Origin: a phage
Sequence record: PQ478073.1
DNA: 64,000 nt
Strand: one strand, 5' to 3'
The position numbers were made by a program, and so were the translations under genes. Below, piece after piece: positions 17,704 through 60,746 of the stretch (position 1 is its first letter; the number at the start of each line of letters is the position of its first letter). The notes under the pieces are model-generated. The model had not been told where the DNA came from. It was given only the letters and a program-made list of their open reading frames with translations, and did no database searches.

Positions 17704-19193
17704 TCTGTGTCCTTATGTATGCGATAAACAGTATTAGGTTTAACTGCGTCATGTAATGGAACTTTGTTATCACTATTTACAAACTGTGTAAGTGCTAAGT
17801 CTGCACCTTCCCACGGTTTTCTTCCACCATAATCAAAAATAACCCATGAATTCTTAGTTGCATTGAATTCCCATAACGTAACTGGAGTATAATCGGTGCG
17901 ATAGAAATAGTCACCATCTACTGCATCAGTTGGGAACATATTTCCTTCAGGGACTGTACCTCGTGCTGGTGGAATTTTAGGACGATAATCTTGTTGCGAA
18001 TCAATATTACCATATACACAATTGGACGTGAATGGTTCATTGACATAAGTTACCTTTGGTTCCCCCCACTTGTCATCATTATACTGATAAATGTGTGGTT
18101 CTTTATAAAAAATACAAAAATCTTCCACATCTTCTGGTGGAACATCACTGGTAGTATATTCTACATCACAATTTAACCATTTTTTAGCACTTTTATCATA
18201 TTGATACAACGTATAACCTGTCACATCTGCGTCATTTTCTTTAAAGAAGAAGTCACCATCCATTGGTTTTCTGGGAAAGATGGTTCCACGCTTGACTTCC
18301 ACAAAAATCCATGTATCATTAACAAACTCTTTGAGTACTGGGTATGTTTTTTTCAAAAAATACATTCCATCGGCAGGTTCTTCTGGAAAATCATAACCGT
18401 TAAGCATATATTTTGATAAATCTACTGTATCAGGTCGATCATCATACAAATGTTCATTTGTATAATGAATATAGGGTACTTCATCATCAGCTTGCATGAT
18501 GATACGGTTCATGATATCCATTTCATTGCCATAGTTACTGTTTTCCGACGAACCATCATCGGTATTTCCATTACCATTATTAGGGTCATCTGGATTATCA
18601 GGATAATTATTGTTACCGAGTAAATCGGAGTACTCAGGTGAGTCGGTTAGCGGTTTAACTCTAAGTTTATAAATGTGATGTTGCCACGTAACCGAGTATC
18701 CCTCAGATGTACGAAATGCATCTTGGACGACATAGAAGCGGTTTAGACCTGTATCTTTACCCAATACATCAAAATCACGTAAATTTGGTAGTTCTATCAC
18801 ATCCCCTGGCATGATTTTTCTACCTAAACGCTGCATCATTGTATTATAATGGATTGTGATGTCCATAGTGTTGAAATTAAAGAACAATCCTGGGATTTTC
18901 AAGTCTGGAGTTGCTTCTTGAACTTGATAGACACAACTAAGTGTGATAGCTTCAAGGTTGTAGTTTCTGTTTGGTGTGTCACCAAAAATTAAATCGCCAA
19001 TACTTGACACAACTGATCCTGAAGATGTATAATCACCTCCATAGGATAAGTCAGTGTTGTCAGCAACTTGTTTTGGACCGACATATGCATAAAGCCACAT
19101 GTCAACTCCACCAATGTTGTATTGTTCAGCAATGGCAGAATCAATGAACTTGTAATCATTGGTTCTACCTTTTTTCCACATTCTATATGTCAT
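17700..19193 (-). CDS. hypothetical protein (497 aa from ATG 19193)
   Basis: Track start 19205 is TTG; first ATG at 19193 has a GGAG SD. D/N/P-rich segment in the middle; product unknown. Confidence 0.5.
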   Translation of the reverse strand: MTYRMWKKGRTNDYKFIDSAIAEQYNIGGVDMWLYAYVGPKQVADNTDLSYGGDYTSSGSVVSSIGDLIFGDTPNRNYNLEAITLSCVYQVQEATPDLKIPGLFFNFNTMDITIHYNTMMQRLGRKIMPGDVIELPNLRDFDVLGKDTGLNRFYVVQDAFRTSEGYSVTWQHHIYKLRVKPLTDSPEYSDLLGNNNYPDNPDDPNNGNGNTDDGSSENSNYGNEMDIMNRIIMQADDEVPYIHYTNEHLYDDRPDTVDLSKYMLNGYDFPEEPADGMYFLKKTYPVLKEFVNDTWIFVEVKRGTIFPRKPMDGDFFFKENDADVTGYTLYQYDKSAKKWLNCDVEYTTSDVPPEDVEDFCIFYKEPHIYQYNDDKWGEPKVTYVNEPFTSNCVYGNIDSQQDYRPKIPPARGTVPEGNMFPTDAVDGDYFYRTDYTPVTLWEFNATKNSWVIFDYGGRKPWEGADLALTQFVNSDNKVPLHDAVKPNTVYRIHKDTE

Positions 19194-19235: not shown

Positions 19236-19263
19236 TAGACAAACCGTAAGAATGTGATATAAT
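19236..19263 (+). promoter_or_regulatory. sigma70-type early promoter with extended -10, driving the ClpA-like gene
   Basis: -35 TAGACA (19236-19241), 16-nt spacer, TGaTATAAT (19255-19263); same GACA-N16-TGnTATAAT layout as at 42208 and 46909. Confidence 0.6.
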
Positions 19264-48698: not shown

Positions 48699-48789
48699 TT
48701 TATTAAATCTCCATGTAATAAATGTGTTTTAGTATTTATAAGACTAAAAAAGATTAAATTAAACTAATTTTTATATTCTCTATAGTTTC

Positions 48790-48796
48790 ATAAATA
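48790..48796 (+). promoter_or_regulatory. candidate late promoter (ATAAATA) for head-module first gene
   Basis: CATAAATAT ~33 nt upstream of ATG 48829; a TATAAT hexamer also present at 48801-48806. Confidence 0.3.
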
Positions 48797-48828
48797 TTTC
48801 TATAATACATCTATTAAAAGGGAATGTT

Positions 48829-51033
48829 ATGGCTGGAAATACAAGTGATTACCTACTCCAGCAGTTGGTTAATCAAACTAAAGATAACAACGATAGTTTG
48901 AGTGCTATACGTGAGTTATTGGCTGAAAATATAAAAAATGATAGAAAGAAATCCGGTTCTAAAAGTGGAAAACGTAATGGAAGTAATTCATCAAGTTCTG
49001 GAAACCGTGGCTCTCGAACAAATAACAAAGCTGATGATGGTAAAGAATTTGGAAAAATATTCAAATCATTATCATCTGAAGTATCGAATGTCGGCAAAAC
49101 TATGATGAGTACGTCTGCAAACGTTAGCAATGTTGTAAACTCACTAGGAATGAGTGCATCTTCATTTGCTGGTTCATTAGCAATGATCCCAGGTCCAGTT
49201 GGTGCAGCAGCATCTGCATTCAAATTGGTTGCTGACGCTGGTTTAGCAGTTTATAATGTGTTAAATGCACAGCTTGAAGTTTATAATAGAATAAACAGTG
49301 CTGGTGTCGCTCTATCTGAAGGTTACGGCTCCATATTAAAAGGTGCTGGTGCATCAATGATGAGTATTGATGCATTTGGTGAAGCATTACAAACTCATAG
49401 TGCCGTTGTTGCACAATTAGATGGTGCATATGGTGATGGTGTTTCTACATTTGGTAAATTATTGGGTACTGTGCAACAAGCACAAAATCAATTAGGTTTA
49501 TATGGTGTTTCTCAAAAAACATTAACTGATTTAACTGCACGTAATATTAAATTCCAAAAGCAATTTGGTGGAAGAGAAATGTTACGTAGTATGGATCAAG
49601 CAAAAAGTACTGAACAGTTTATCATGAGTATGACTAAGTTCAGTAAAAGTATGGGTGAGTCAGTTGATGCACTATTAAATAAAACACAAAACTTAGATAA
49701 ATCATTAGACACACGTTCAATGCAAATCGCATTACAAAACTATTCTGGATTATCTAGTAAAGCAGCAGTTGCAACATCAAAAGCATTTAACGAAGCTGCT
49801 GCCAGTATGGGTGATGCTGGTGCAGATTTTCTACGTTTAATTTCACATCGTTTAACTATTGGTGGAGTACCAGATGATTTATTGACTCCAGTACTGAACC
49901 AATTTGCTGATTTAGGTGAGAACTTGGTACGTAGTGGTGTTACTGATTCACAAGAAATTCGCCGTCAACAATTGGAATTTGTTAAAAAGAACAAAGAACT
50001 AATAAAGCAAGATTTATTAAATCAGATACAATTAGGAAACACTACGGCAGCAACCTTCAACCAACAACTACTTGATATGGAAGCTGCGATTAATGATCCT
50101 AAGAGTCAACCAGCAGATAAACTAACACAATTCACTGATAGATTCAATAGATGGATTAGTAAAGAATTTACTGAACCATTTAATAAAATGTATGCAGATA
50201 CACAAAATTCTATTGCGGATTACCTTACTGATATTGCAGACCGTACTGATGGTGCATGGGAATTTATCGGAGAGTTAGCACTTGATGGTTTTGGTTTGGT
50301 TCCTATTGCGAAAGATGCAGTTGCGTATTTGGATAGGATTGGTGGTGAGTTTGAGCAGTGGTTAGAAGGGTTAGGTACTGAAATTTTTGGTAGTGGATAT
50401 AATAAAGTTTCAGAAGCATTTGATAGCTTTATGAATAACCTAATGGATCTTCCTGGTAAACTTTGGGATTCTGTTAAAGGTTGGTTTGGTGGATCAGACG
50501 ACAAAGTAAAAGTAGAAAACAATTCTGTTACCGATGGTGCAGAAAAAGTTAATAATTATTTTGAAGAAAAAATGAATTCATTTGGTGATTATATTTCTAG
50601 TTCATTTGATGGTTTTTTAAAATGGAATTCAAGTAGAAACTTTAAACAACCAAAACCCCTTGATGAATCAGTTGCTGAAAAACTTATTAGTAGTGGTCTT
50701 GAAAATAAGCCAAGAGCAACTGCGAGAATCGAAAAATCTGAACATGTTGCACCATATGTTACCATAACTCCAAAAACTTTTGATAAATCAGCATGGGGTC
50801 CAAATGAACCACCAATTCAAGCTGAACCGGACGATTATGAGGCCATGAAAGCGATGATAAATAGTGGTAGTAGTATGGCAAATGCTAATAATAATGCCAC
50901 AATATCAGAAGACATGAAAGAGTTACTTAAAAAACTTGCTGATGTTAATGAGCAATCTCTATCTGCCGTGCAACAGACAAATAACTATCTAAGAACTATC
51001 TCTGAAAACACTCAAGGTGAGAGAAACAGTTAA
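48829..51033 (+). CDS. hypothetical virion-associated protein, Ala/Gly-rich helical (734 aa); possible tape-measure or internal protein
   Basis: Low-complexity basic/Ser N-terminus (GSKSGKRNGSNSSSSGNRGSR), long alpha-helix-type A/G/L/Q composition; directly upstream of the portal with the portal SD overlapping its stop. Confidence 0.35.
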   Translation: MAGNTSDYLLQQLVNQTKDNNDSLSAIRELLAENIKNDRKKSGSKSGKRNGSNSSSSGNRGSRTNNKADDGKEFGKIFKSLSSEVSNVGKTMMSTSANVSNVVNSLGMSASSFAGSLAMIPGPVGAAASAFKLVADAGLAVYNVLNAQLEVYNRINSAGVALSEGYGSILKGAGASMMSIDAFGEALQTHSAVVAQLDGAYGDGVSTFGKLLGTVQQAQNQLGLYGVSQKTLTDLTARNIKFQKQFGGREMLRSMDQAKSTEQFIMSMTKFSKSMGESVDALLNKTQNLDKSLDTRSMQIALQNYSGLSSKAAVATSKAFNEAAASMGDAGADFLRLISHRLTIGGVPDDLLTPVLNQFADLGENLVRSGVTDSQEIRRQQLEFVKKNKELIKQDLLNQIQLGNTTAATFNQQLLDMEAAINDPKSQPADKLTQFTDRFNRWISKEFTEPFNKMYADTQNSIADYLTDIADRTDGAWEFIGELALDGFGLVPIAKDAVAYLDRIGGEFEQWLEGLGTEIFGSGYNKVSEAFDSFMNNLMDLPGKLWDSVKGWFGGSDDKVKVENNSVTDGAEKVNNYFEEKMNSFGDYISSSFDGFLKWNSSRNFKQPKPLDESVAEKLISSGLENKPRATARIEKSEHVAPYVTITPKTFDKSAWGPNEPPIQAEPDDYEAMKAMINSGSSMANANNNATISEDMKELLKKLADVNEQSLSAVQQTNNYLRTISENTQGERNS

Positions 51034-54690: not shown

Positions 54691-54721
54691 TATAAATATC
54701 TGTATGTTGAAGTACAGATAT
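54691..54721 (+). promoter_or_regulatory. candidate late promoter TATAAATA overlapped by a 9-bp palindrome
   Basis: TATAAATA 54691-54698; perfect inverted repeat ATATCTGTA-N8-TACAGATAT (54696-54704, 54713-54721) spanning the -10 element and the expected start site. Confidence 0.4.
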
Positions 54722-54745
54722 TTCAGTACTTAAAGGAGAGAACGA

Positions 54746-55952: not shown

Positions 55953-57128
55953 ATGTCACAACTACTAAATGAATCCAAATGGGTAGCAGTAAAAGAGAAA
56001 CTAGTTGAAGGTCTACAGGGTACTCGTAAGTCTGTAATGGAAACTGTTCTTGATAACCATCGTAAAGTTATGCTAACTGAATCCGCAACTTCTGGTGCAA
56101 CTACCGCTGGTAACATCGCTACTCTAAACAAAGTGATTCTACCAATTATGCGTCGTGTAATGCCAACCGTTATTGCTAACGAAATCATCGGTGTTCAACC
56201 AATGACTGGTCCAGTTGGTCAGATCCACACCCTACGTGTGCAATATGCTGATAACGCACCTGGTGTTATCGCTGGTGAAGAAATGCTTTCTCCATACAAA
56301 ATCGCTAAATCCTACTCTGGTGATCTAAATGCGGATAATAGCAACCCACAAGCTGCTCCTACTAGCCAACTAGAAGGTACTATGGGTCGTCGCGTTAACA
56401 TCCGTATTCTACGTGAAACTGTTGAAGCGAAATCTCGTCGTCTATCTGCACGTTGGACTGTTGAATCTGCACAAGATGCTCAATCCCAACATGGTGTTGA
56501 CGTTGAAGCAGAACTAATGGCTGCAATCGCTCAAGAAGTTACCGTAGAAATCGACCAAGAGCTACTAAGCCGTCTACGTGCACTACCTGGTGCTGCTGCT
56601 GTAACTTATGACCAATCTAAAGTTACTGGTGTTGCAACCTTCGTTGGTGATGAGCACGCTGCTCTAGCAACTCTAATTAACCGTCAAGCAAACGAAGTTG
56701 CTCGTCGTACTAAGCGTGGTGCTGCAAACTGGGCTGTTGTTTCCCCAACTGCACTAACCATTCTACAATCTGCTACTACTTCTAGCTTTGCACGTACCAC
56801 TGAAGGTACTTTCGAAGCACCAACTAACGTTAAGTTTGTAGGTACTCTAAACAGCACTATGCGTATTTTTGTTGATACTTATGCAAGTGATGCAGAAGAT
56901 ATTCTAATTGGTTATAAAGGTAATGCAGAAACTGATGCTGGTGTGTTCTATTGCCCATACATCCCACTAATGGCTTCCGGTACTGTAATGGACCCTAACA
57001 CTGGGGAATTGGTCACAACTTTCTTAACCAGGTATGGTTATGTTCAGTTGACCGATAGCACCAGTTCACTAGGTAACGCTGCGGACTACTACAGCAAAAT
57101 CGCTATCAAAAACGTTACTTTCATGTAA
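55953..57128 (+). CDS. 23: major capsid protein, gp23-like (391 aa)
   Basis: RRVMPTVIANEIIGVQPMTGPVGQIHTLRVQYA vs T4 gp23 RRAIPNLIAFDICGVQPMNSPTGQVFALRAVYG; VEAKSRRLSARWTVESAQD vs IEAKSRQLKAAYSIELAQD; YKGNAETDAGVFYCPYIPL vs YKGPNEMDAGIYYAPYVAL. About 130 aa shorter than T4 gp23. Confidence 0.92.
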   Translation: MSQLLNESKWVAVKEKLVEGLQGTRKSVMETVLDNHRKVMLTESATSGATTAGNIATLNKVILPIMRRVMPTVIANEIIGVQPMTGPVGQIHTLRVQYADNAPGVIAGEEMLSPYKIAKSYSGDLNADNSNPQAAPTSQLEGTMGRRVNIRILRETVEAKSRRLSARWTVESAQDAQSQHGVDVEAELMAAIAQEVTVEIDQELLSRLRALPGAAAVTYDQSKVTGVATFVGDEHAALATLINRQANEVARRTKRGAANWAVVSPTALTILQSATTSSFARTTEGTFEAPTNVKFVGTLNSTMRIFVDTYASDAEDILIGYKGNAETDAGVFYCPYIPLMASGTVMDPNTGELVTTFLTRYGYVQLTDSTSSLGNAADYYSKIAIKNVTFM

Positions 57129-57174
57129 TTGTAATAGATTTAAAAGATTTAATCAAAAAAAAATAAAAACAATA

Positions 57175-57204
57175 GGGACTCTTCGGAGTCCCTTTTCTTT
57201 TTAT
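57175..57204 (+). terminator. strong intrinsic terminator after capsid gene (UUCG tetraloop)
   Basis: GGGACTC-ttcg-GAGTCCC followed by TTTTCTTTTTATT. Confidence 0.85.
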
Positions 57205-57214
57205 TAAAAAACCC

Positions 57215-57243
57215 TTGACACAATGTTCTGGAATGTATATAAT
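57215..57243 (+). promoter_or_regulatory. consensus sigma70 promoter (TTGACA-17-TATAAT)
   Basis: -35 TTGACA 57215-57220, 17-nt spacer, -10 TATAAT 57238-57243; ATG 57276 lies ~26 nt downstream of the predicted start site. Confidence 0.7.
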
Positions 57244-57275
57244 ACGCACATACACGAAAATAAAGAGACAAAATT

Positions 57276-58373
57276 ATGCCAAACGTAAGTATCAACAAAG
57301 AAGAGTTTATCAGCAAAATGACTGCTAAGTATGGTGAATTTGATTTCAGTACTTTAGTATTCAAAGCAAGTAAGACAACAGTGAAATGTAACAAGTGTGG
57401 AAAAGAAAACACCAAACCTGCACTTCGTCACATTGCATGTACATGTGCATCATGTTATTCAAACATGTCACAACGTTCAAACAACGACACATTCATCAGT
57501 ACTATAGAAACTAAATTTGGAAAAGATAAATTCAAATTTGATAAACTAAATTACACTAATGCTATATCAAAAGTAACAATTTTCTGCACAGATGAAGATC
57601 ACAATGATTACTTTGAAATTACACCCAATAAATTTCTTTCTGGTAAAGGATGCCCCGTATGTAATAAAAATGAAGCATACAGTACTGAAGAGTTCAAAGA
57701 AAAAGTAAAAGATAATTATGGTGATTTATTGGATTTAACTAACACGGTGTATGTAAATCAAAAAACTAAAGTAACTGTGTATTGTAACGCAGGTAATCAT
57801 GAATGGACAGTTGATCCAAAAACTTTACTTGTTGGTAAGACTGGATGTGGTACATGCTCCGGTAAAGGCGGTCGAAGTACTGAACGTTTCATTGAACTTG
57901 TGTCGCCTATCCATAACCATAAGTATGATTATAGCTTGGTGGATTACAAGACTAGTGATGAACATGTGGATATTATTTGTCCTGAACATGGTGTCTTTAA
58001 ACAAATACCCAAATCTCATATGGCAGGAAGAGGATGTCCATCATGTGGTGAGTATGGTTATCAACCATCAAAGCCTGGATATTTCTATGTACAAAAACTA
58101 TCTAATAACTCAAAAGTCGTTTACAAATACGGAATTACCGGAGACATGAAGAGACGAATTCATGAACAAAGTCGCAATTCTGAGTTCGAGCATGAATTAC
58201 TGGTAGAACGTTACTTTGAGGATGGTAATAAACCATTATTATTGGAAAAGTTTATCAAGCAATACATTGAAAGTGGTGTTGTAAGTACTGAAGAGTTACC
58301 GTCAGGATTTACTGAAACATTTGATGCTAAGTATCTTGAAAGTGTTTTAGAAATTGTAAATACTTTTAAGTAA
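57276..58373 (+). CDS. tandem zinc-ribbon protein with C-terminal GIY-YIG-like (T5orf172-type) domain (365 aa)
   Basis: Four repeats of C/H...CxxC modules (CNKCGKEN...CTCASC; CTDEDH...CPVC; CNAGNH...CGTC; CPEHG...CPSC); C-terminus GYFYVQK...VYKYGITGDMKRRIHEQ... matches the GIY...YIG..R pattern (~58077-58373). Confidence 0.55.
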   Translation: MPNVSINKEEFISKMTAKYGEFDFSTLVFKASKTTVKCNKCGKENTKPALRHIACTCASCYSNMSQRSNNDTFISTIETKFGKDKFKFDKLNYTNAISKVTIFCTDEDHNDYFEITPNKFLSGKGCPVCNKNEAYSTEEFKEKVKDNYGDLLDLTNTVYVNQKTKVTVYCNAGNHEWTVDPKTLLVGKTGCGTCSGKGGRSTERFIELVSPIHNHKYDYSLVDYKTSDEHVDIICPEHGVFKQIPKSHMAGRGCPSCGEYGYQPSKPGYFYVQKLSNNSKVVYKYGITGDMKRRIHEQSRNSEFEHELLVERYFEDGNKPLLLEKFIKQYIESGVVSTEELPSGFTETFDAKYLESVLEIVNTFK

Positions 58374-58396
58374 ACAATCTAAAGGAGTTGACACGG

Positions 58397-58747
58397 ATGT
58401 TAACTGTATACAAATTTAACAAAGAAGAGTACTTAAAGAGTCAGTACTCAAATATAGAAATAAATGTTCCTTATGGTACGTTAGTTGGATATGATGAAGC
58501 CACTGAAACATTGTATTATAATGATGATAGATTGGATTATAGTTTAGATTCATTCATTGAAGATATACTTAATACACATACTGAAGATATGTTGTATGAA
58601 GAATACATAGACCATTATAGAGAACGTATGTCGGTGCTGCATTCTGATGCTCCTGTACTAAACATAGCACAAGAACCATCGGAATTTCAGCCACATAATC
58701 CTTTTCAACGTTTAATTGATATTGGTTTAAAATTCACTATTAGTTGA
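58397..58747 (+). CDS. hypothetical acidic protein (116 aa from ATG 58397)
   Basis: Track start 58388 is TTG; ATG 58397 lies 9 nt after an AAAGGAG SD; product unknown. Confidence 0.45.
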   Translation: MLTVYKFNKEEYLKSQYSNIEINVPYGTLVGYDEATETLYYNDDRLDYSLDSFIEDILNTHTEDMLYEEYIDHYRERMSVLHSDAPVLNIAQEPSEFQPHNPFQRLIDIGLKFTIS

Positions 58748-58750
58748 TAG

Positions 58751-58779
58751 ATAAATATCTCCATATTAATGATGGAGAT
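58751..58779 (+). promoter_or_regulatory. ATAAATATCT late-promoter-like motif followed by an 8-bp inverted repeat that includes the SD
   Basis: ATAAATA 58751-58757; ATCTCCAT-N7-ATGGAGAT (58757-58764, 58772-58779) with GGAG inside the 3' arm. Confidence 0.35.
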
Positions 58780-58786
58780 TGAATCT

Positions 58787-59095
58787 ATGTCACAGATATG
58801 TTATGTTATAATAAACTCTGCATGGCCTGACTATGTTAAGATTGGTTTCACTTCTAAATCTGAAATGACAGAGCGTTTGAGAACGTATCAGACAGCTACC
58901 CCGTTTCGTGATTTTGAAGTTTATCATGAAGTTCACTTTGAAGACGCACGTTTAGCTGAAAAAGAGATACATAAAAGGCTTAAACAAATGAATGCAACTA
59001 GACAACCAAACACAGAGTGGTTTAAAATGTCTAAAAAGATAGCAGCAAACATCATTGATTCTGTGTGGGATGATATGGATAACGACTTGCTATAG
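58787..59095 (+). CDS. stand-alone GIY-YIG-like (T5orf172-type) domain protein (102 aa from ATG 58787)
   Basis: ICYVIINSAWPDYVKIGFT...ERLRTY...EIHKRL...EWF matches the T5orf172/GIY-YIG-like pattern. Start choice (58769, 58772 or 58787) is uncertain. Confidence 0.55.
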   Translation: MSQICYVIINSAWPDYVKIGFTSKSEMTERLRTYQTATPFRDFEVYHEVHFEDARLAEKEIHKRLKQMNATRQPNTEWFKMSKKIAANIIDSVWDDMDNDLL

Positions 59096-59097
59096 GA

Positions 59098-59104
59098 ATA
59101 AATA
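59098..59104 (+). promoter_or_regulatory. candidate late promoter (AATAAATAT) for fibre gene
   Basis: ATAAATA ~32 nt upstream of ATG 59136. Confidence 0.3.
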
Positions 59105-59135: not shown

Positions 59136-60746
59136 ATGAGCATAAGTTTTAATAACCCATTGGATACAATGACCAGTACTGGTGCTAATGGATCTTTAGA
59201 ACTAATAGTGCTTGGTGGTACACCAACTAACCCAAGACCTATTCGTTTTAATTCGTCATCAGTTATTATACCAGTACAAACGTTACCTACTGGTGAACAA
59301 GGTGCAATGGTTTTTGATCGAAGCGAATTAGTTTTGAAGTATCATAACGGTACAAGTTGGATTGCAGTATATGATACTGATACTATTTTGGAACCAATTA
59401 GAATTTCATTAGATGAAGTAAACAGAAAATTAAATTTAAAAGTAGAAAGTGTAACATACAGTAGCAGTACTGTTCCTAGTGCAAGTATTAGTGGAACAAA
59501 CTTAAACATTGTATTCCCTACTGCTTCTAGTGGTGGTTCTGGACCAACTGGTCTTTACACTTCACTTAAACCTGGTGCTATTACACAATATTCATTGACT
59601 TCTGGTCAATCTGTTGCTAGTATACGTGAACAAATGTCAGGGCAATCGAATGGACAAAGTGGACGAAACGGTTCACAAGGTGCTCCGTGGAAAACGTCTG
59701 ACGGTTGGTGTTTTGCTGATGGTATGTGGTGGCAATGGGAGGGGGAAAATGGTACAATTACCAAACAAGTACCAAACCTTAACCAAAACGCGTATTTAAA
59801 AGGTATAACAACATCAGGTGTAACTAAAACTGATAGTGTTATTGGTAGTAGTGGTAACATTAGTGGAACTGTATTGAGTGTTGCCCAGTTACCATCACAC
59901 TCATTTAGTTTTAGTGGAACCACTGGTGCTGCTGGTCGTCATGGTCATAGTCAAGCACTAAAAGGTATGGACCGTAGTGGTCTAAATGCGTTAACTTCAA
60001 GTAATGATAACGGTATACCAACTGTAATCAATAACATTAACGAAGCACCAGACCACATTCACTCATTTAGTGGAAACACTAACACACTTGGTGGAAACCA
60101 ACCACACTATCATGGTATTAGCAACATTGATGTGGAACACTTTAACGTTGCATACCTATATAACATTGCTGAATCTAACGTCGCATTGAGTGAAAAAGTT
60201 GCAAACACTCGTTATGTACTAAAAACTGGTGATACAATGACTGGTTCATTGACTATTGCAAACAGTGCGTCAATTAAGTCAAATGATACATCATTAGTTC
60301 TATATTTCCGTAACGCAAGCGGTGGTGAGCGTGCGGCAGTGTATCATAACTCTTCAAATAATACATTGAGATTACGTTCCGGTGGAGCAGAAGTTACTGT
60401 AAACTCTTCTGGTACTTTAGCTGCTCCATCATTAACTGTTTCTAACAACTCAGCTACTGTTGGTGGTAAAAATATTGTTCGTTCAATTAACGGTACTGCT
60501 GCTGATGCTAGTGGCAACGTTACTTTGCAAATTAGTACTAATAACGTACAAAGTATTCGTTTGAGTGCACGTATTGAAACAAGTAAAATACCTGATTCTT
60601 CATGGACATATACACCAGAAGGTGCATTTATGGATGGCGTATGGATTTCTGTTAATGGTAGTTCAGGCACTCACTTAGAACGAATTAGTTATCGCTATGT
60701 TCAAATGCAAATAAATGGTAACTGGGAAACAGTACGTCAACAATAA
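59136..60746 (+). CDS. tail fibre protein with His-x-His metal-site-like motifs (536 aa)
   Basis: S/T/G/N-rich; HSFSFSGTTGAAGRHGHS and HIHSFSGNTNTLGGNQPHYHG resemble the HxH ion-binding repeats of T4 gp12/gp37 receptor-binding tips; followed by a Tfa-type chaperone gene. Confidence 0.6.
   Translation: MSISFNNPLDTMTSTGANGSLELIVLGGTPTNPRPIRFNSSSVIIPVQTLPTGEQGAMVFDRSELVLKYHNGTSWIAVYDTDTILEPIRISLDEVNRKLNLKVESVTYSSSTVPSASISGTNLNIVFPTASSGGSGPTGLYTSLKPGAITQYSLTSGQSVASIREQMSGQSNGQSGRNGSQGAPWKTSDGWCFADGMWWQWEGENGTITKQVPNLNQNAYLKGITTSGVTKTDSVIGSSGNISGTVLSVAQLPSHSFSFSGTTGAAGRHGHSQALKGMDRSGLNALTSSNDNGIPTVINNINEAPDHIHSFSGNTNTLGGNQPHYHGISNIDVEHFNVAYLYNIAESNVALSEKVANTRYVLKTGDTMTGSLTIANSASIKSNDTSLVLYFRNASGGERAAVYHNSSNNTLRLRSGGAEVTVNSSGTLAAPSLTVSNNSATVGGKNIVRSINGTAADASGNVTLQISTNNVQSIRLSARIETSKIPDSSWTYTPEGAFMDGVWISVNGSSGTHLERISYRYVQMQINGNWETVRQQ

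Follow-up and report, generated by a model that had tools for sequence, protein, structure and literature searches.

The window analysed here, a stretch of 64,000 nucleotides (nt) of phage DNA from sequence record PQ478073.1, carries between its major capsid gene and a tail-fibre gene three open reading frames (ORFs) of 365, 116 and 102 amino acids (aa). This locus is probably a composite, made up of one mobile homing endonuclease gene (HEG), which encodes the 365-aa protein, and two resident genes, the second of which encodes a small nuclease with a switch that would confine its translation to late infection. The original prediction had described the three genes as a mobile nuclease or homing-type cassette. 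That description can be kept for the 365-aa gene, which is variably present and carries its own promoter, but not for the 116-aa and 102-aa genes, which are resident. The analysis establishes gene content, family assignments, presence and absence among relatives, a mosaic tract, selection, and the conservation and covariation of an RNA hairpin. The main features of the locus are as follows.

56890..57128, plus strand: 3' end of the capsid gene, the imported left part of the mosaic tract, delimited by the switch in mismatches of the window against phages PBECO4 and Turkey3.
57174..57203, plus strand: intrinsic terminator of the capsid gene and left border of the insertion, with a GGGACTC/GAGTCCC stem, a UUCG loop and a T run.
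57215..57243, plus strand: sigma-70-type promoter TTGACA-17-TATAAT on the inserted segment, score 12/12, its function predicted from the sequence.
57276..58373, plus strand: putative free-standing HEG of 365 aa, with four zinc modules (aa ~6-262) and a T5orf172 domain (aa ~266-365).
58397..58747, plus strand: resident gene for a 116-aa acidic protein, with the right border of the insertion at its start codon.
58750..58757, plus strand: T4-type late promoter motif GATAAATA of the 102-aa gene, 30 nt before its ATG.
58757..58779, plus strand: RNA hairpin of 8 bp with a 7-nt loop, found by folding, whose 3' arm holds the Shine-Dalgarno (SD) sequence GGAG.
58787..59095, plus strand: resident stand-alone T5orf172 (GIY-YIG-like) protein of 102 aa, identified by Pfam, whose C-terminal tail is acidic and conserved.

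A 4.9-kb query around the locus matched 66 phage records, the best being Escherichia phage vB_EcoM_CRJP21 at 98% identity. Further matches include 121Q and PBECO4 of the genus Asteriusvirus, jumbo myoviruses of ~350 kb, and the window is from an Asteriusvirus jumbo phage of E. coli of the 121Q/PBECO4 type. The same genes are already deposited in RefSeq 121Q under the names "endonuclease", used for the 365-aa gene (gp604), and "GIY-YIG nuclease family protein".

The mobility of the 365-aa gene is seen most directly in its distribution. In ~45 records, the distance from the last codon of the capsid gene to the 116-aa ATG was measured with tblastn coordinates. Empty sites of 74-121 nt are present in PBECO4, SD-1/-6/-15 (Salmonella), fEgEco12 and CMSTMSU, and empty sites of 174-177 nt in CBB, XbC2 and the Serratia BF, Yersinia fHe-Yen9 and Erwinia pEa phages. 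Elsewhere at least seven size classes of insert are found (~1080, ~1165, ~1230, ~1265, ~1340, ~1770 and ~1966 nt), all between the capsid terminator and the 116-aa gene. Presence at this fixed site beside an essential gene is sporadic, with at least six empty sites of the Asteriusvirus type and others in further genera. Alignment of occupied and empty alleles places the left border after the T run of the terminator (~57204) and the right border at the start codon of the 116-aa gene, so that the inserted HEG segment spans ~57204-58396; it stands in place of ~46 nt of PBECO4 sequence.

The occupants of the site are diverse. Eight have the same architecture, with zinc modules that vary in number and sequence in Pfam scans, and all eight give a C-terminal T5orf172/MUG113 match that is mostly under the cut-off; the allele of SHEFM2K reaches 26 bits for T5orf172, over the cut-off of 20, and that of 7t3 reaches 43 bits for CapR. 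The occupant in slurp01 is a 307-aa relative that has the C-terminal half in common with the window protein and not the N-terminal modules. In UE-S1 (L005 2821-4479; also ph0011) the occupant is an unrelated 552-aa protein with matches to DUF7487 and the restriction-endonuclease-like MTES_1575, and the site therefore draws more than one class of nuclease. A 77-aa ORF at the site in Cronobacter phage GAP32 (GAP32_251, L007 3175-3408) corresponds to a remnant of the C-terminal ~54 aa (hhalign 98.2%, E 3e-14). It is a decayed copy of a T5orf172 endonuclease of this family, as would fit a cycle of invasion, decay and loss. In 7t3 (L011 1697-2320; also SE_PL), the endonuclease and the 116-aa homologue are separated by an extra 207-aa ORF that has no Pfam match.

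Variable presence at the junction, which the reading as a cassette called for, thus holds for the first gene, whereas the 116-aa and 102-aa genes are constant and have conserved flanks. All Asteriusvirus relatives examined, empty-site phages among them, have both genes in conserved synteny, and both also occur in Mimasvirus, Eneladusvirus and unclassified Salmonella and Erwinia jumbo phages. They follow the phylogeny of the backbone and are under strong purifying selection. Insertion of the three-gene block as one mobile cassette in a late structural region would account for three adjacent, co-oriented genes behind one strong promoter with no terminator between them, and for nuclease-like domains in two of the three proteins. 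This explanation is nevertheless given very little credence, given that the 116-aa and 102-aa genes are present in every relative, empty-site phages included (the RaK2 group apart for the 102-aa gene), and are syntenic across several genera; that they are 98.6-100% identical to those of PBECO4, while the HEG is Turkey3-like; and that the small nuclease has a ratio of nonsynonymous to synonymous substitution rates (dN/dS) of 0.03. Under the composite reading the 116-aa and 102-aa genes would be ancestral components of the Rak2-like jumbo phages.

The 365-aa protein was predicted to have four zinc-ribbon modules, and four modules of ~64 aa, of the CapR/DUF4379/DUF723 type, indeed align with one another. 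Their metal ligands are C38/C41/C57/C60, C104/H109/C126/C129, C170/H175/C191/C194 and C235/H238/C254/C257, such that one module has the pattern CxxC...CxxC and three have C...H...CxxC. In Pfam, DUF4379 ("probable treble clef zinc finger") passes its cut-off (26.4 versus 24.5), and CapR, DUF723 and the C-terminal T5orf172/MUG113 matches are all under theirs. The protein falls into phrog_681, "endonuclease", at 1e-76, and aa 212-364 are 31.6% identical to the ICP1 "tcgB putative homing endonuclease" (E 5e-9). Together, phrog_681, the allelic variants and the ICP1 match argue for a C-terminal nuclease domain. Residues invariant in 10 aligned alleles are Y271 (GYFYV), K284, G286 (YKYGIT), R293/R294, E324 and E347 (TETF). 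Given a dN/dS of ~0.10 for the HEG at full length, the protein is therefore maintained under purifying selection. A search of the HEG profile against PDB sequences gave no match, a search of NCBIfam gave none for any of the three proteins, and no paralogues of the three were found elsewhere within the window.

The T5orf172 HEG family combines a T5orf172 nuclease with repeated CapR/DUF723/DUF4379 zinc fingers, and its members vary in presence among isolates, adjoin essential genes including that for the capsid, and swap domains between alleles (Barth, Dunham & Seed 2023, PMC10448857); the same paper makes no mention of 121Q, RaK2 or jumbo phages. The repeated N-terminal zinc modules that mark this family can be recognized in the 365-aa sequence. 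The 365-aa gene would thus be a free-standing T5orf172-type HEG of the family described in ICP1, and its product a probable DNA-cleaving enzyme.

A mosaic tract around the gene is a second line of evidence for mobility. The HEG is 98.3% identical to that of Turkey3 over its 5' 600 nt and 96.0% identical over its 3' 498 nt, and the 116-aa, small nuclease and tail-fibre genes of Turkey3 are only 81-85% identical to those of the window. In these same flanking genes, the HEG-less PBECO4 matches the window at 98.6-100% identity. With a HEG like that of Turkey3 and flanks like those of PBECO4, the phylogeny of the HEG therefore conflicts with that of its flanks. The synonymous divergence (dS) of the window from Turkey3 is lowest in the HEG, at 0.10; it rises to 0.24 in the capsid gene, 0.94 in the 116-aa gene and 1.8 in the small nuclease gene.

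The left end of the tract can be seen within the capsid gene. The first ~920 nt of the gene are free of mismatches to PBECO4, after which there are ~11 per 100 nt up to the stop codon; compared with Turkey3, the window has 5-11 per 100 nt over the first ~1000 nt and then 1-2 per 100 nt. The differences at the 3' end are all synonymous, because the C-terminal 99 aa are identical. On the right side, the sequence returns to the PBECO4 type within ~50 nt of the start of the 116-aa gene. A Turkey3-like tract of ~1.55 kb (~56.89-58.42 kb), which runs from the end of the capsid gene through terminator and promoter and takes in the HEG, is therefore set in a PBECO4-like backbone, and the last ~240 nt of the capsid gene travel with the HEG. 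Homing with asymmetric co-conversion would produce just such a pattern.

Association of the HEG with capsid haplotypes was checked by ranking relatives by their identity over the final 134 nt of the capsid gene. The first eleven records in this order (93-100%) all carry this type of HEG and represent two different backbones; ten of the twelve carriers stand at the head of the ranking. One other haplotype (91.0%) is common to the eight carriers of the slurp01-type allele, and the empty-site phages are at 86-87%, with fEgEco12 as an exception at 91%. The dS contrast, the tract and the haplotype association all point to horizontal spread of the 365-aa gene with co-conversion of its flank. The sequence comparison suggests a cut site in the stretch of the recipient that corresponds to ~56.89-57.25 kb, and the 3' end of the capsid gene is a candidate region for polymorphisms that determine target or immunity.

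From these results, cleavage activity and its target, promoter use, transcription start sites and late-only translation are deduced, and the following course of events can be proposed for the HEG. The array of four zinc modules would read the DNA and the C-terminal GIY-YIG-like domain would cut it. In a mixed infection, the 365-aa protein would cut the HEG-less allele near the 3' end of the capsid gene or in the intergenic site, and the break would be repaired off the HEG-carrying genome, such that the HEG and the last ~240 nt of the capsid gene are copied in.

The 365-aa protein might instead be a domesticated DNA-binding regulator that binds close to the capsid gene and modulates late expression, comparable to CapR, the satellite-encoded repressor of ICP1 capsid expression. 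The zinc modules are homologous to CapR/DUF723/DUF4379, the gene adjoins the capsid gene, and I-TevI is a repressor as well as a nuclease (PMC2988022). The residues of the nuclease motif are invariant across alleles, however, with a dN/dS of ~0.1 over the full length, and sporadic presence, replacement by an unrelated nuclease in UE-S1, a decayed remnant in GAP32 and a co-converted flank would be surprising for a regulator of an essential gene. A regulator is thus considered unlikely, and the reading of the gene as a HEG is retained.

The junction itself has the layout first predicted for it, in which a strong capsid terminator is followed by a TTGACA-17-TATAAT promoter. The terminator AGGGACTCTTCGGAGTCCCT, at 57174-57193, has a G+C-rich stem of 7-8 bp and is followed by TTTTCTTTTT. 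It is kept in occupied and empty alleles, and homology between the two kinds of allele stops right past the T run. The promoter hexamers are TTGACA at 57215-57220 and TATAAT at 57238-57243, with a 17-nt spacer, for a match of 12/12; two 12/12 sites in total are present on both strands of the window. Both hexamers are perfect in Turkey3 and BF17, in which the 17-nt spacers have diverged; the promoter scores 11/12 in 121Q and slurp01, and UE-S1 has TTGACA-17-TATCAT. The 12/12 promoter is missing at the empty sites of the closest relatives, PBECO4 and fEgEco12.

Other promoters are found at the same junction in more distant relatives. The sequence TGAAAC(G)-N17-TATAAT precedes the 116-aa homologue at the empty sites of CBB, XbC2, pEa12 and Kaldavass, and also in GAP32, which has the HEG remnant. 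The "divergent RpoD-like" promoter class of CBB is of this TGAAAC(G) type, and 11 of its 18 members are upstream of CBB_258-329 (PMC5259590). Hallingskeid and PHA46, which lack the HEG, have TTGA(T/C)G inside the terminator loop, followed after 17 nt by TATAAT, and EJP2, Munch and 7t3 have the same loop-borne -35 arrangement upstream of their HEGs. Terminator and promoter overlap in Munch, EJP2, 7t3, Hallingskeid and PHA46 because the -35 element TTGA(C/T)G is in the terminator loop and TATAAT is past the T run.

Where relatives have an empty site, a non-late promoter stands before the 116-aa gene; the junction is therefore not simply a late structural region, which qualifies the earlier claim of an insertion into one. 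The sequences suggest that the capsid terminator closes the late block of head genes and that the 116-aa gene natively opens a non-late unit. The native promoter is degenerate in the PBECO4 lineage, and the 121Q-type HEG would supply its own. With its own host-type promoter, the HEG would therefore be made early, a timing suggested by the promoter sequence and supported by CBB, in which RpoD-like promoters mark the presumed early region (PMC5259590).

The second 12/12 sigma-70-like site of the window, at 19004-19033, is within a virion structural gene on the minus strand. At 19236-19263, an intergenic 11/12 site with a TG-extended -10 element precedes a gene for a 769-aa ATP-dependent protease-like protein (phrog_4871), which would therefore be another non-late gene amid structural genes.

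The 102-aa protein was predicted to be a stand-alone GIY-YIG-like protein, and it matches both PF10544 (T5orf172; 50.5 bits, cut-off 20) and PF13455 (MUG113; 49.2 bits, cut-off 22.3), with the alpha/beta fold of the GIY-YIG family. Its homologues form 32 clusters, all of 100-108 aa and with identities of 63-93%, in which Y6, K18, G20, R30, E58, E60, E77, W78 and N88 are invariant. By likeness to I-TevI and Odn, the residues Y6, R30, E77 and N88 are probably catalytic. An acidic-hydrophobic tail, DDxENDLL (59069-59092), is kept in nearly all 32 homologues and, from its sequence, looks like a protein-interaction tail. The best Foldseek matches are UPF0213, Slx1 and UvrC, none of them significant. 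Proteins that consist of a T5orf172 domain on its own are common. The family profile found 2030 cluster representatives at E <= 1e-3, and ~1/3 of the top 150 are shorter than 120 aa.

Apart from the RaK2 group, every relative examined has the gene at the same position; it lies between the 116-aa and tail-fibre genes in Asteriusvirus, GAP32, CBB, XbC2, Erwinia phages, PHA46, 7t3, Munch and EJP2. Its dN/dS of ~0.03 is equal to that of the capsid gene. It has neither the variable presence nor the DNA-recognition domain of a HEG, being a single domain of 100-108 aa, and its product would be a bare nuclease domain that keeps its catalytic residues and has no DNA-binding domain. A functionless, decaying remnant of an old HEG that had lost its DNA-binding part would have such a bare domain and HEG-style regulation, and the nearest relatives are indeed C-terminal domains of larger phage proteins, some of them annotated as homing endonucleases. 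Decay is hard to reconcile with a dN/dS as low as that of the capsid gene, 32 clusters of constant length with invariant catalytic residues, a fixed position across genera, and a hairpin upheld by compensatory changes, and a remnant of this kind is highly improbable.

With regard to function, virion mass spectrometry of CBB detected the flanking capsid and fibre proteins but not the homologues of the 116-aa and 102-aa proteins, which makes a role in the virion unlikely. Conserved Uri/T5orf172 endonucleases have been described in "group 2.2" jumbo phages, with a suggested role like that of a Holliday junction resolvase or in recombination (Iyer et al. 2021, PMC7824862). The exemplars of that study, QAY00453.1 and APU01437.1, are possible members of the 102-aa family; the G17 record has other accessions. 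By analogy, the most likely role of the 102-aa nuclease is in late DNA processing or recombination, as Iyer et al. proposed.

An RNA hairpin separates this gene from its late promoter motif. The original prediction had placed the start of the small protein in an inverted repeat that includes its SD. Such a repeat is present at 58757-58779, belongs to the resident gene and not to the mobile element, and appears to be regulatory. Its arms are ATCTCCAT (58757-58764) and ATGGAGAT (58772-58779), with the SD GGAG at 58774-58777, and the last base of the late motif GATAAATA is the first base of the 5' arm. The folding energy (dG) of the window hairpin is -10.2 kcal/mol, with a z-score of -2.4. Twelve leaders from NATAAATA to ATG in the window were folded as a control, and that of the 102-aa gene is the strongest (-0.255 kcal/mol/nt, z -3.7).

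The late motif can be recognized throughout the window. The sequence TATAAATA occurs 6 times, against a chance expectation of 11, and all 6 sites are just upstream of gene starts in the correct orientation; five are intergenic, and the sixth, although inside a longest-ORF call, precedes an SD and ATG by ~30 nt. Of the 18 occurrences of the 7-mer ATAAATA, most are intergenic, correctly oriented and 17-60 nt ahead of a gene start. The same late motif was reported at 35 sites before structural genes in CBB, together with a gp55-like sigma factor, and before structural genes in GAP32, which also encodes a gp55-like sigma factor (PMC5259590).

Two other leaders in the window fold near a late motif. 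A 12-bp hairpin (ATATCTGTA...TACAGATAT, dG ~-13 kcal/mol) at 54691-54725 comes right after the TATAAATA of the scaffold gene (ATG 54746), and the SD is not involved. The gene that starts at 48829 (CATAAATA promoter) has a leader, at 48789-48831, in which promoter-adjacent sequence pairs more weakly with the SD region (dG -6.4 kcal/mol, z -2.2), and this may be a second case of control by a late promoter and an SD hairpin.

The layout before the 102-aa gene is conserved among relatives. The motif NATAAATA or a near variant is present at this position in 12 sequence variants, and the late motif is directly upstream of an SD hairpin in 12 variants and not in one. The layout is kept in thirteen annotated relatives (nine distinct sequences), while the stems differ: ATCTCCAT/ATGGAGAT; TCTTCAT/ATGGAGA, with a G.U pair; (U)ACCCC/GGGGU(G); UACUUCC/GGAGGUA; UACUUCCAUG/...UAUGGAGGUA; and UCCCA/UGGGA with an inner helix. 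Stem sequences among the variants include TCTCC/GGAGA, CTTCC/GGAGG, CCCC/GGGG and TCCCA/TGGGA. Given that the stems differ in length and register, covariation was read from individual folds. Compensatory double changes at +1, +2 and +3, counted from the motif, convert U-A to C-G, C-G to U-A and U-A to C-G. When the nine leaders were folded, the SD was in the 3' arm each time, with dG values of -7.6 to -13.4 kcal/mol and z-scores of -2.3 to -4.4 relative to shuffled controls.

Four divergent orthologues from metagenomic contigs extend this comparison, and three of the four have the layout with new stems: CCTTCACT/AGTGGAGG; TATAAATA followed by ACTTCATCT/AGATGAGGT; and CTAAATA followed by AACTCATCC/GGAAGAGTT. 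The orthologue with CTAAATA (L023 1501-1803, from SRR5240359) is 67% identical and lies in another neighbourhood, with DUF1353 and S1-domain genes, and has kept the promoter-like motif and the SD hairpin.

A late promoter with a hairpin over the ribosome binding site (RBS) is known for I-TevI, I-TevII, I-TevIII, segB, e and soc of T4 and for mobE of Aeh1 (Edgell, Gibb & Belfort 2010, PMC2988022). In the T4-type cases, the RBS is masked in early or middle read-through transcripts, and late transcription begins inside the structure (PMC2988022). For the 102-aa gene, RNAs starting 6 nt past the motif lose the structure, with dG values of only -1.2 to -5.4. T4 late promoters start transcription ~6 nt past the motif, and the late start is assumed to be at the same place here. 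A search of the plus strand for terminators found none between 57193 and 61302, and transcripts from the HEG promoter or the native promoter should therefore run through the 102-aa gene. The expected read-through therefore explains the need for a translation block on this gene. Such long transcripts, whether from the HEG or the native promoter, would hold both arms of the hairpin and be translationally silent, and the late transcript would begin inside the 5' arm, leaving the SD free. By analogy with T4, the gene's own late transcript appears to be the only one from which the 102-aa nuclease is made.

The inverted repeat over the SD could also be a chance palindrome, an element for mRNA stability or processing, or a damper of translation that acts on any transcript. 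The stems are short (5-12 bp) and the single-sequence z-scores are in the range given above, the late start was placed by analogy with T4, the strong hairpin in the scaffold leader (54691-54725) forms without the SD, and one orthologue has no hairpin. Against these stand the twelve variants, in which the 5' arm always abuts the late motif and the 3' arm always holds the SD although the sequences differ, and the same geometry has been experimentally established in T4 (PMC2988022). Taken together, explanations without a switch seem rather unlikely, though less so than a regulator in place of the HEG, and the late-only switch is preferred.

The 116-aa gene, between the HEG and the nuclease, encodes the acidic protein first predicted at 58397-58747, with an isoelectric point of 4.36 and no cysteine. 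By tblastn it is present in 71 records, all from Rak2-like jumbo phages (Asteriusvirus, Alcyoneusvirus, Mimasvirus, Eneladusvirus and unclassified relatives), and a profile search found 41 protein clusters and no Pfam domain. An AlphaFold2 model, with a mean predicted local distance difference test score (pLDDT) of 75, resembles only generic SH3-like barrels, and the protein is predicted to be a small SH3-like barrel with added helices.

Obligate partnership of the 116-aa and 102-aa proteins was considered and rejected. RaK2 has the 116-aa gene, and at the position of the small nuclease it has a 244-aa ORF (ORF097) that is unrelated despite its position and was dropped as a counterpart. In PHA46 (L009 3001-3419), the 116-aa homologue is apparently split into two short ORFs, and the adjacent T5orf172 gene and its promoter and hairpin are intact. 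With only the 116-aa gene in RaK2 and an intact nuclease beside a degraded 116-aa gene in PHA46, the two are therefore not obligate partners.

A possible late motif was placed before the 116-aa gene, and a further late motif at the right end of the locus.

58355..58362, plus strand: TGTAAATA within the nuclease gene at its 3' end, 34 nt short of the 116-aa ATG, a one-mismatch motif in AT-rich DNA.
59097..59104, plus strand: late promoter motif AATAAATA of the tail-fibre gene at the right end of the locus, from the motif survey and phrog_13229.

At empty sites, TCTAAATA is found ~29 nt before the same ATG. By analogy with T4 segG and gene 32, TGTAAATA may be a late promoter for the 116-aa gene that is embedded in the mobile gene; promoters embedded in endonuclease genes have a precedent in T4 (PMC2988022). 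The order of genes is prohead protease, scaffold, gp23-like major capsid protein (55953-57128), the 365-aa, 116-aa and 102-aa ORFs, tail fibre (59136-60746, matching phrog_13229), tail-fibre assembly, a small ORF and DNA polymerase.

Several points weigh against parts of the composite reading. As for the HEG, the T5orf172 score of the window allele is 16.9, under the Pfam cut-off of 20, so that the GIY-YIG-like region predicted at the C-terminus stands on the combined evidence but not on the Pfam score of this allele. Homing by the T5orf172 family has not been verified experimentally, ICP1 included (PMC10448857). SP27 and phAPEC6 carry this type of HEG and yet have a different capsid 3' haplotype (87%), and the linkage of HEG and haplotype is therefore not absolute. 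The hhalign comparison of the HEG profile with the small T5orf172 family is weak (1.7% probability, E 0.029), and the HEG and the 102-aa nuclease are therefore not close paralogues. As for the small nuclease and its switch, the motif before the 102-aa gene matches at 7 of 8 positions, with G at position 1; the individual hairpins are short and their z-scores reach only -2.3 to -4.4; and the divergent orthologue L021 has neither motif nor hairpin, its start codon overlapping the upstream gene. Finally, a role of the small nuclease as sole junction resolvase is weakened because CBB encodes an endonuclease VII homologue (PMC5259590).

After the same hhalign result, the idea that the HEG targets the resident nuclease gene, or recombines with it, via homology was dropped. 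A history in which the 102-aa protein is a domesticated nuclease domain of a HEG can be offered tentatively and is somewhat doubtful. In this history, the domain would have become a fixed late DNA-processing enzyme of the Rak2-like jumbo phages that keeps the ancestral HEG-style switch and is recruited through DDxENDLL, and the neighbouring site would still be a hot spot for HEGs of the same family. Possible roles for such an enzyme are debranching or end processing before packaging, or the destruction of competing DNA.

The locus can be compared with several known systems. Like the T5orf172 HEGs of ICP1 (PMC10448857), the 365-aa gene has N-terminal zinc modules and a C-terminal T5orf172 domain, is variably present and adjoins the capsid gene, shows domain swapping (slurp01), and is at a boundary of genetic exchange. 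Unlike them, it belongs to a Rak2-like/Asteriusvirus lineage of jumbo coliphages, is a single copy per genome at this site with no large paralogous expansion (1 place in the closest relative), and has its own consensus sigma-70 promoter and a co-conversion tract mapped in the window.

The T4 seg (GIY-YIG) and mob (HNH) genes also occupy intergenic sites between conserved genes, with segD between genes 23 and 24 (PMC2988022). In common with such free-standing HEGs, cleavage would be expected in the neighbouring conserved gene, with asymmetric co-conversion of flanks and possibly an embedded downstream promoter. The 365-aa protein differs in being of the T5orf172 subfamily rather than canonical GIY-YIG, and in having an array of zinc modules in place of NUMOD or helix-turn-helix domains. 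Seven of the T4 free-standing genes are promoter-less cassettes (PMC2988022), whereas the 365-aa gene has its own promoter.

The leader of the 102-aa gene resembles I-TevI/segB-type control in T4, with a late promoter right upstream of an SD hairpin and a nuclease gene that also lies on longer, earlier transcripts. In contrast to the T4 cases, the controlled gene is a conserved, non-mobile nuclease that consists of the domain only, in a distant group of jumbo phages, and is known from sequence. The 102-aa protein has the conserved Tyr, Arg, Glu and Asn of the Slx1 catalytic domain, the UPF0213/YhbQ-type proteins and the group 2.2 Uri/T5orf172 proteins, for which a role in recombination or junction processing has been proposed. 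The sequence identity is only ~14-20%, the 102-aa protein has the T5orf172 signature (KIG for YIG, and an EWF motif), and no Slx4-like partner was identified. The PADLOC candidate defence proteins PDC-S57 (5.5e-17) and PD-Lambda-1 (5.9e-5) have a T5orf172-type domain in common with it, but these are longer bacterial proteins with extra domains, and the likeness is at the level of the domain with no bearing on function.

The 365-aa gene belongs to a described family, and none of the findings is new in concept or will surprise a specialist. What is added here, useful and open to testing, is the insertion polymorphism with its multi-nuclease hot spot, the mapped co-conversion tract, and the conserved layout of late promoter and SD hairpin. 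The T5orf172 HEG family is thereby extended to the Rak2-like/Asteriusvirus jumbo coliphages. Near-identical phages with the HEG (121Q, CRJP21) and without it (PBECO4), and a candidate target interval of ~300 nt, make up a natural test system. The 3' end of the capsid gene in these therapeutic-candidate phages is a recombination boundary, which matters for phylogenies based on the capsid. The 102-aa gene is flagged as a conserved nuclease of jumbo phages, and the layout of its leader suggests that T4-style post-transcriptional timing has been conserved in a very distant T4-related lineage.

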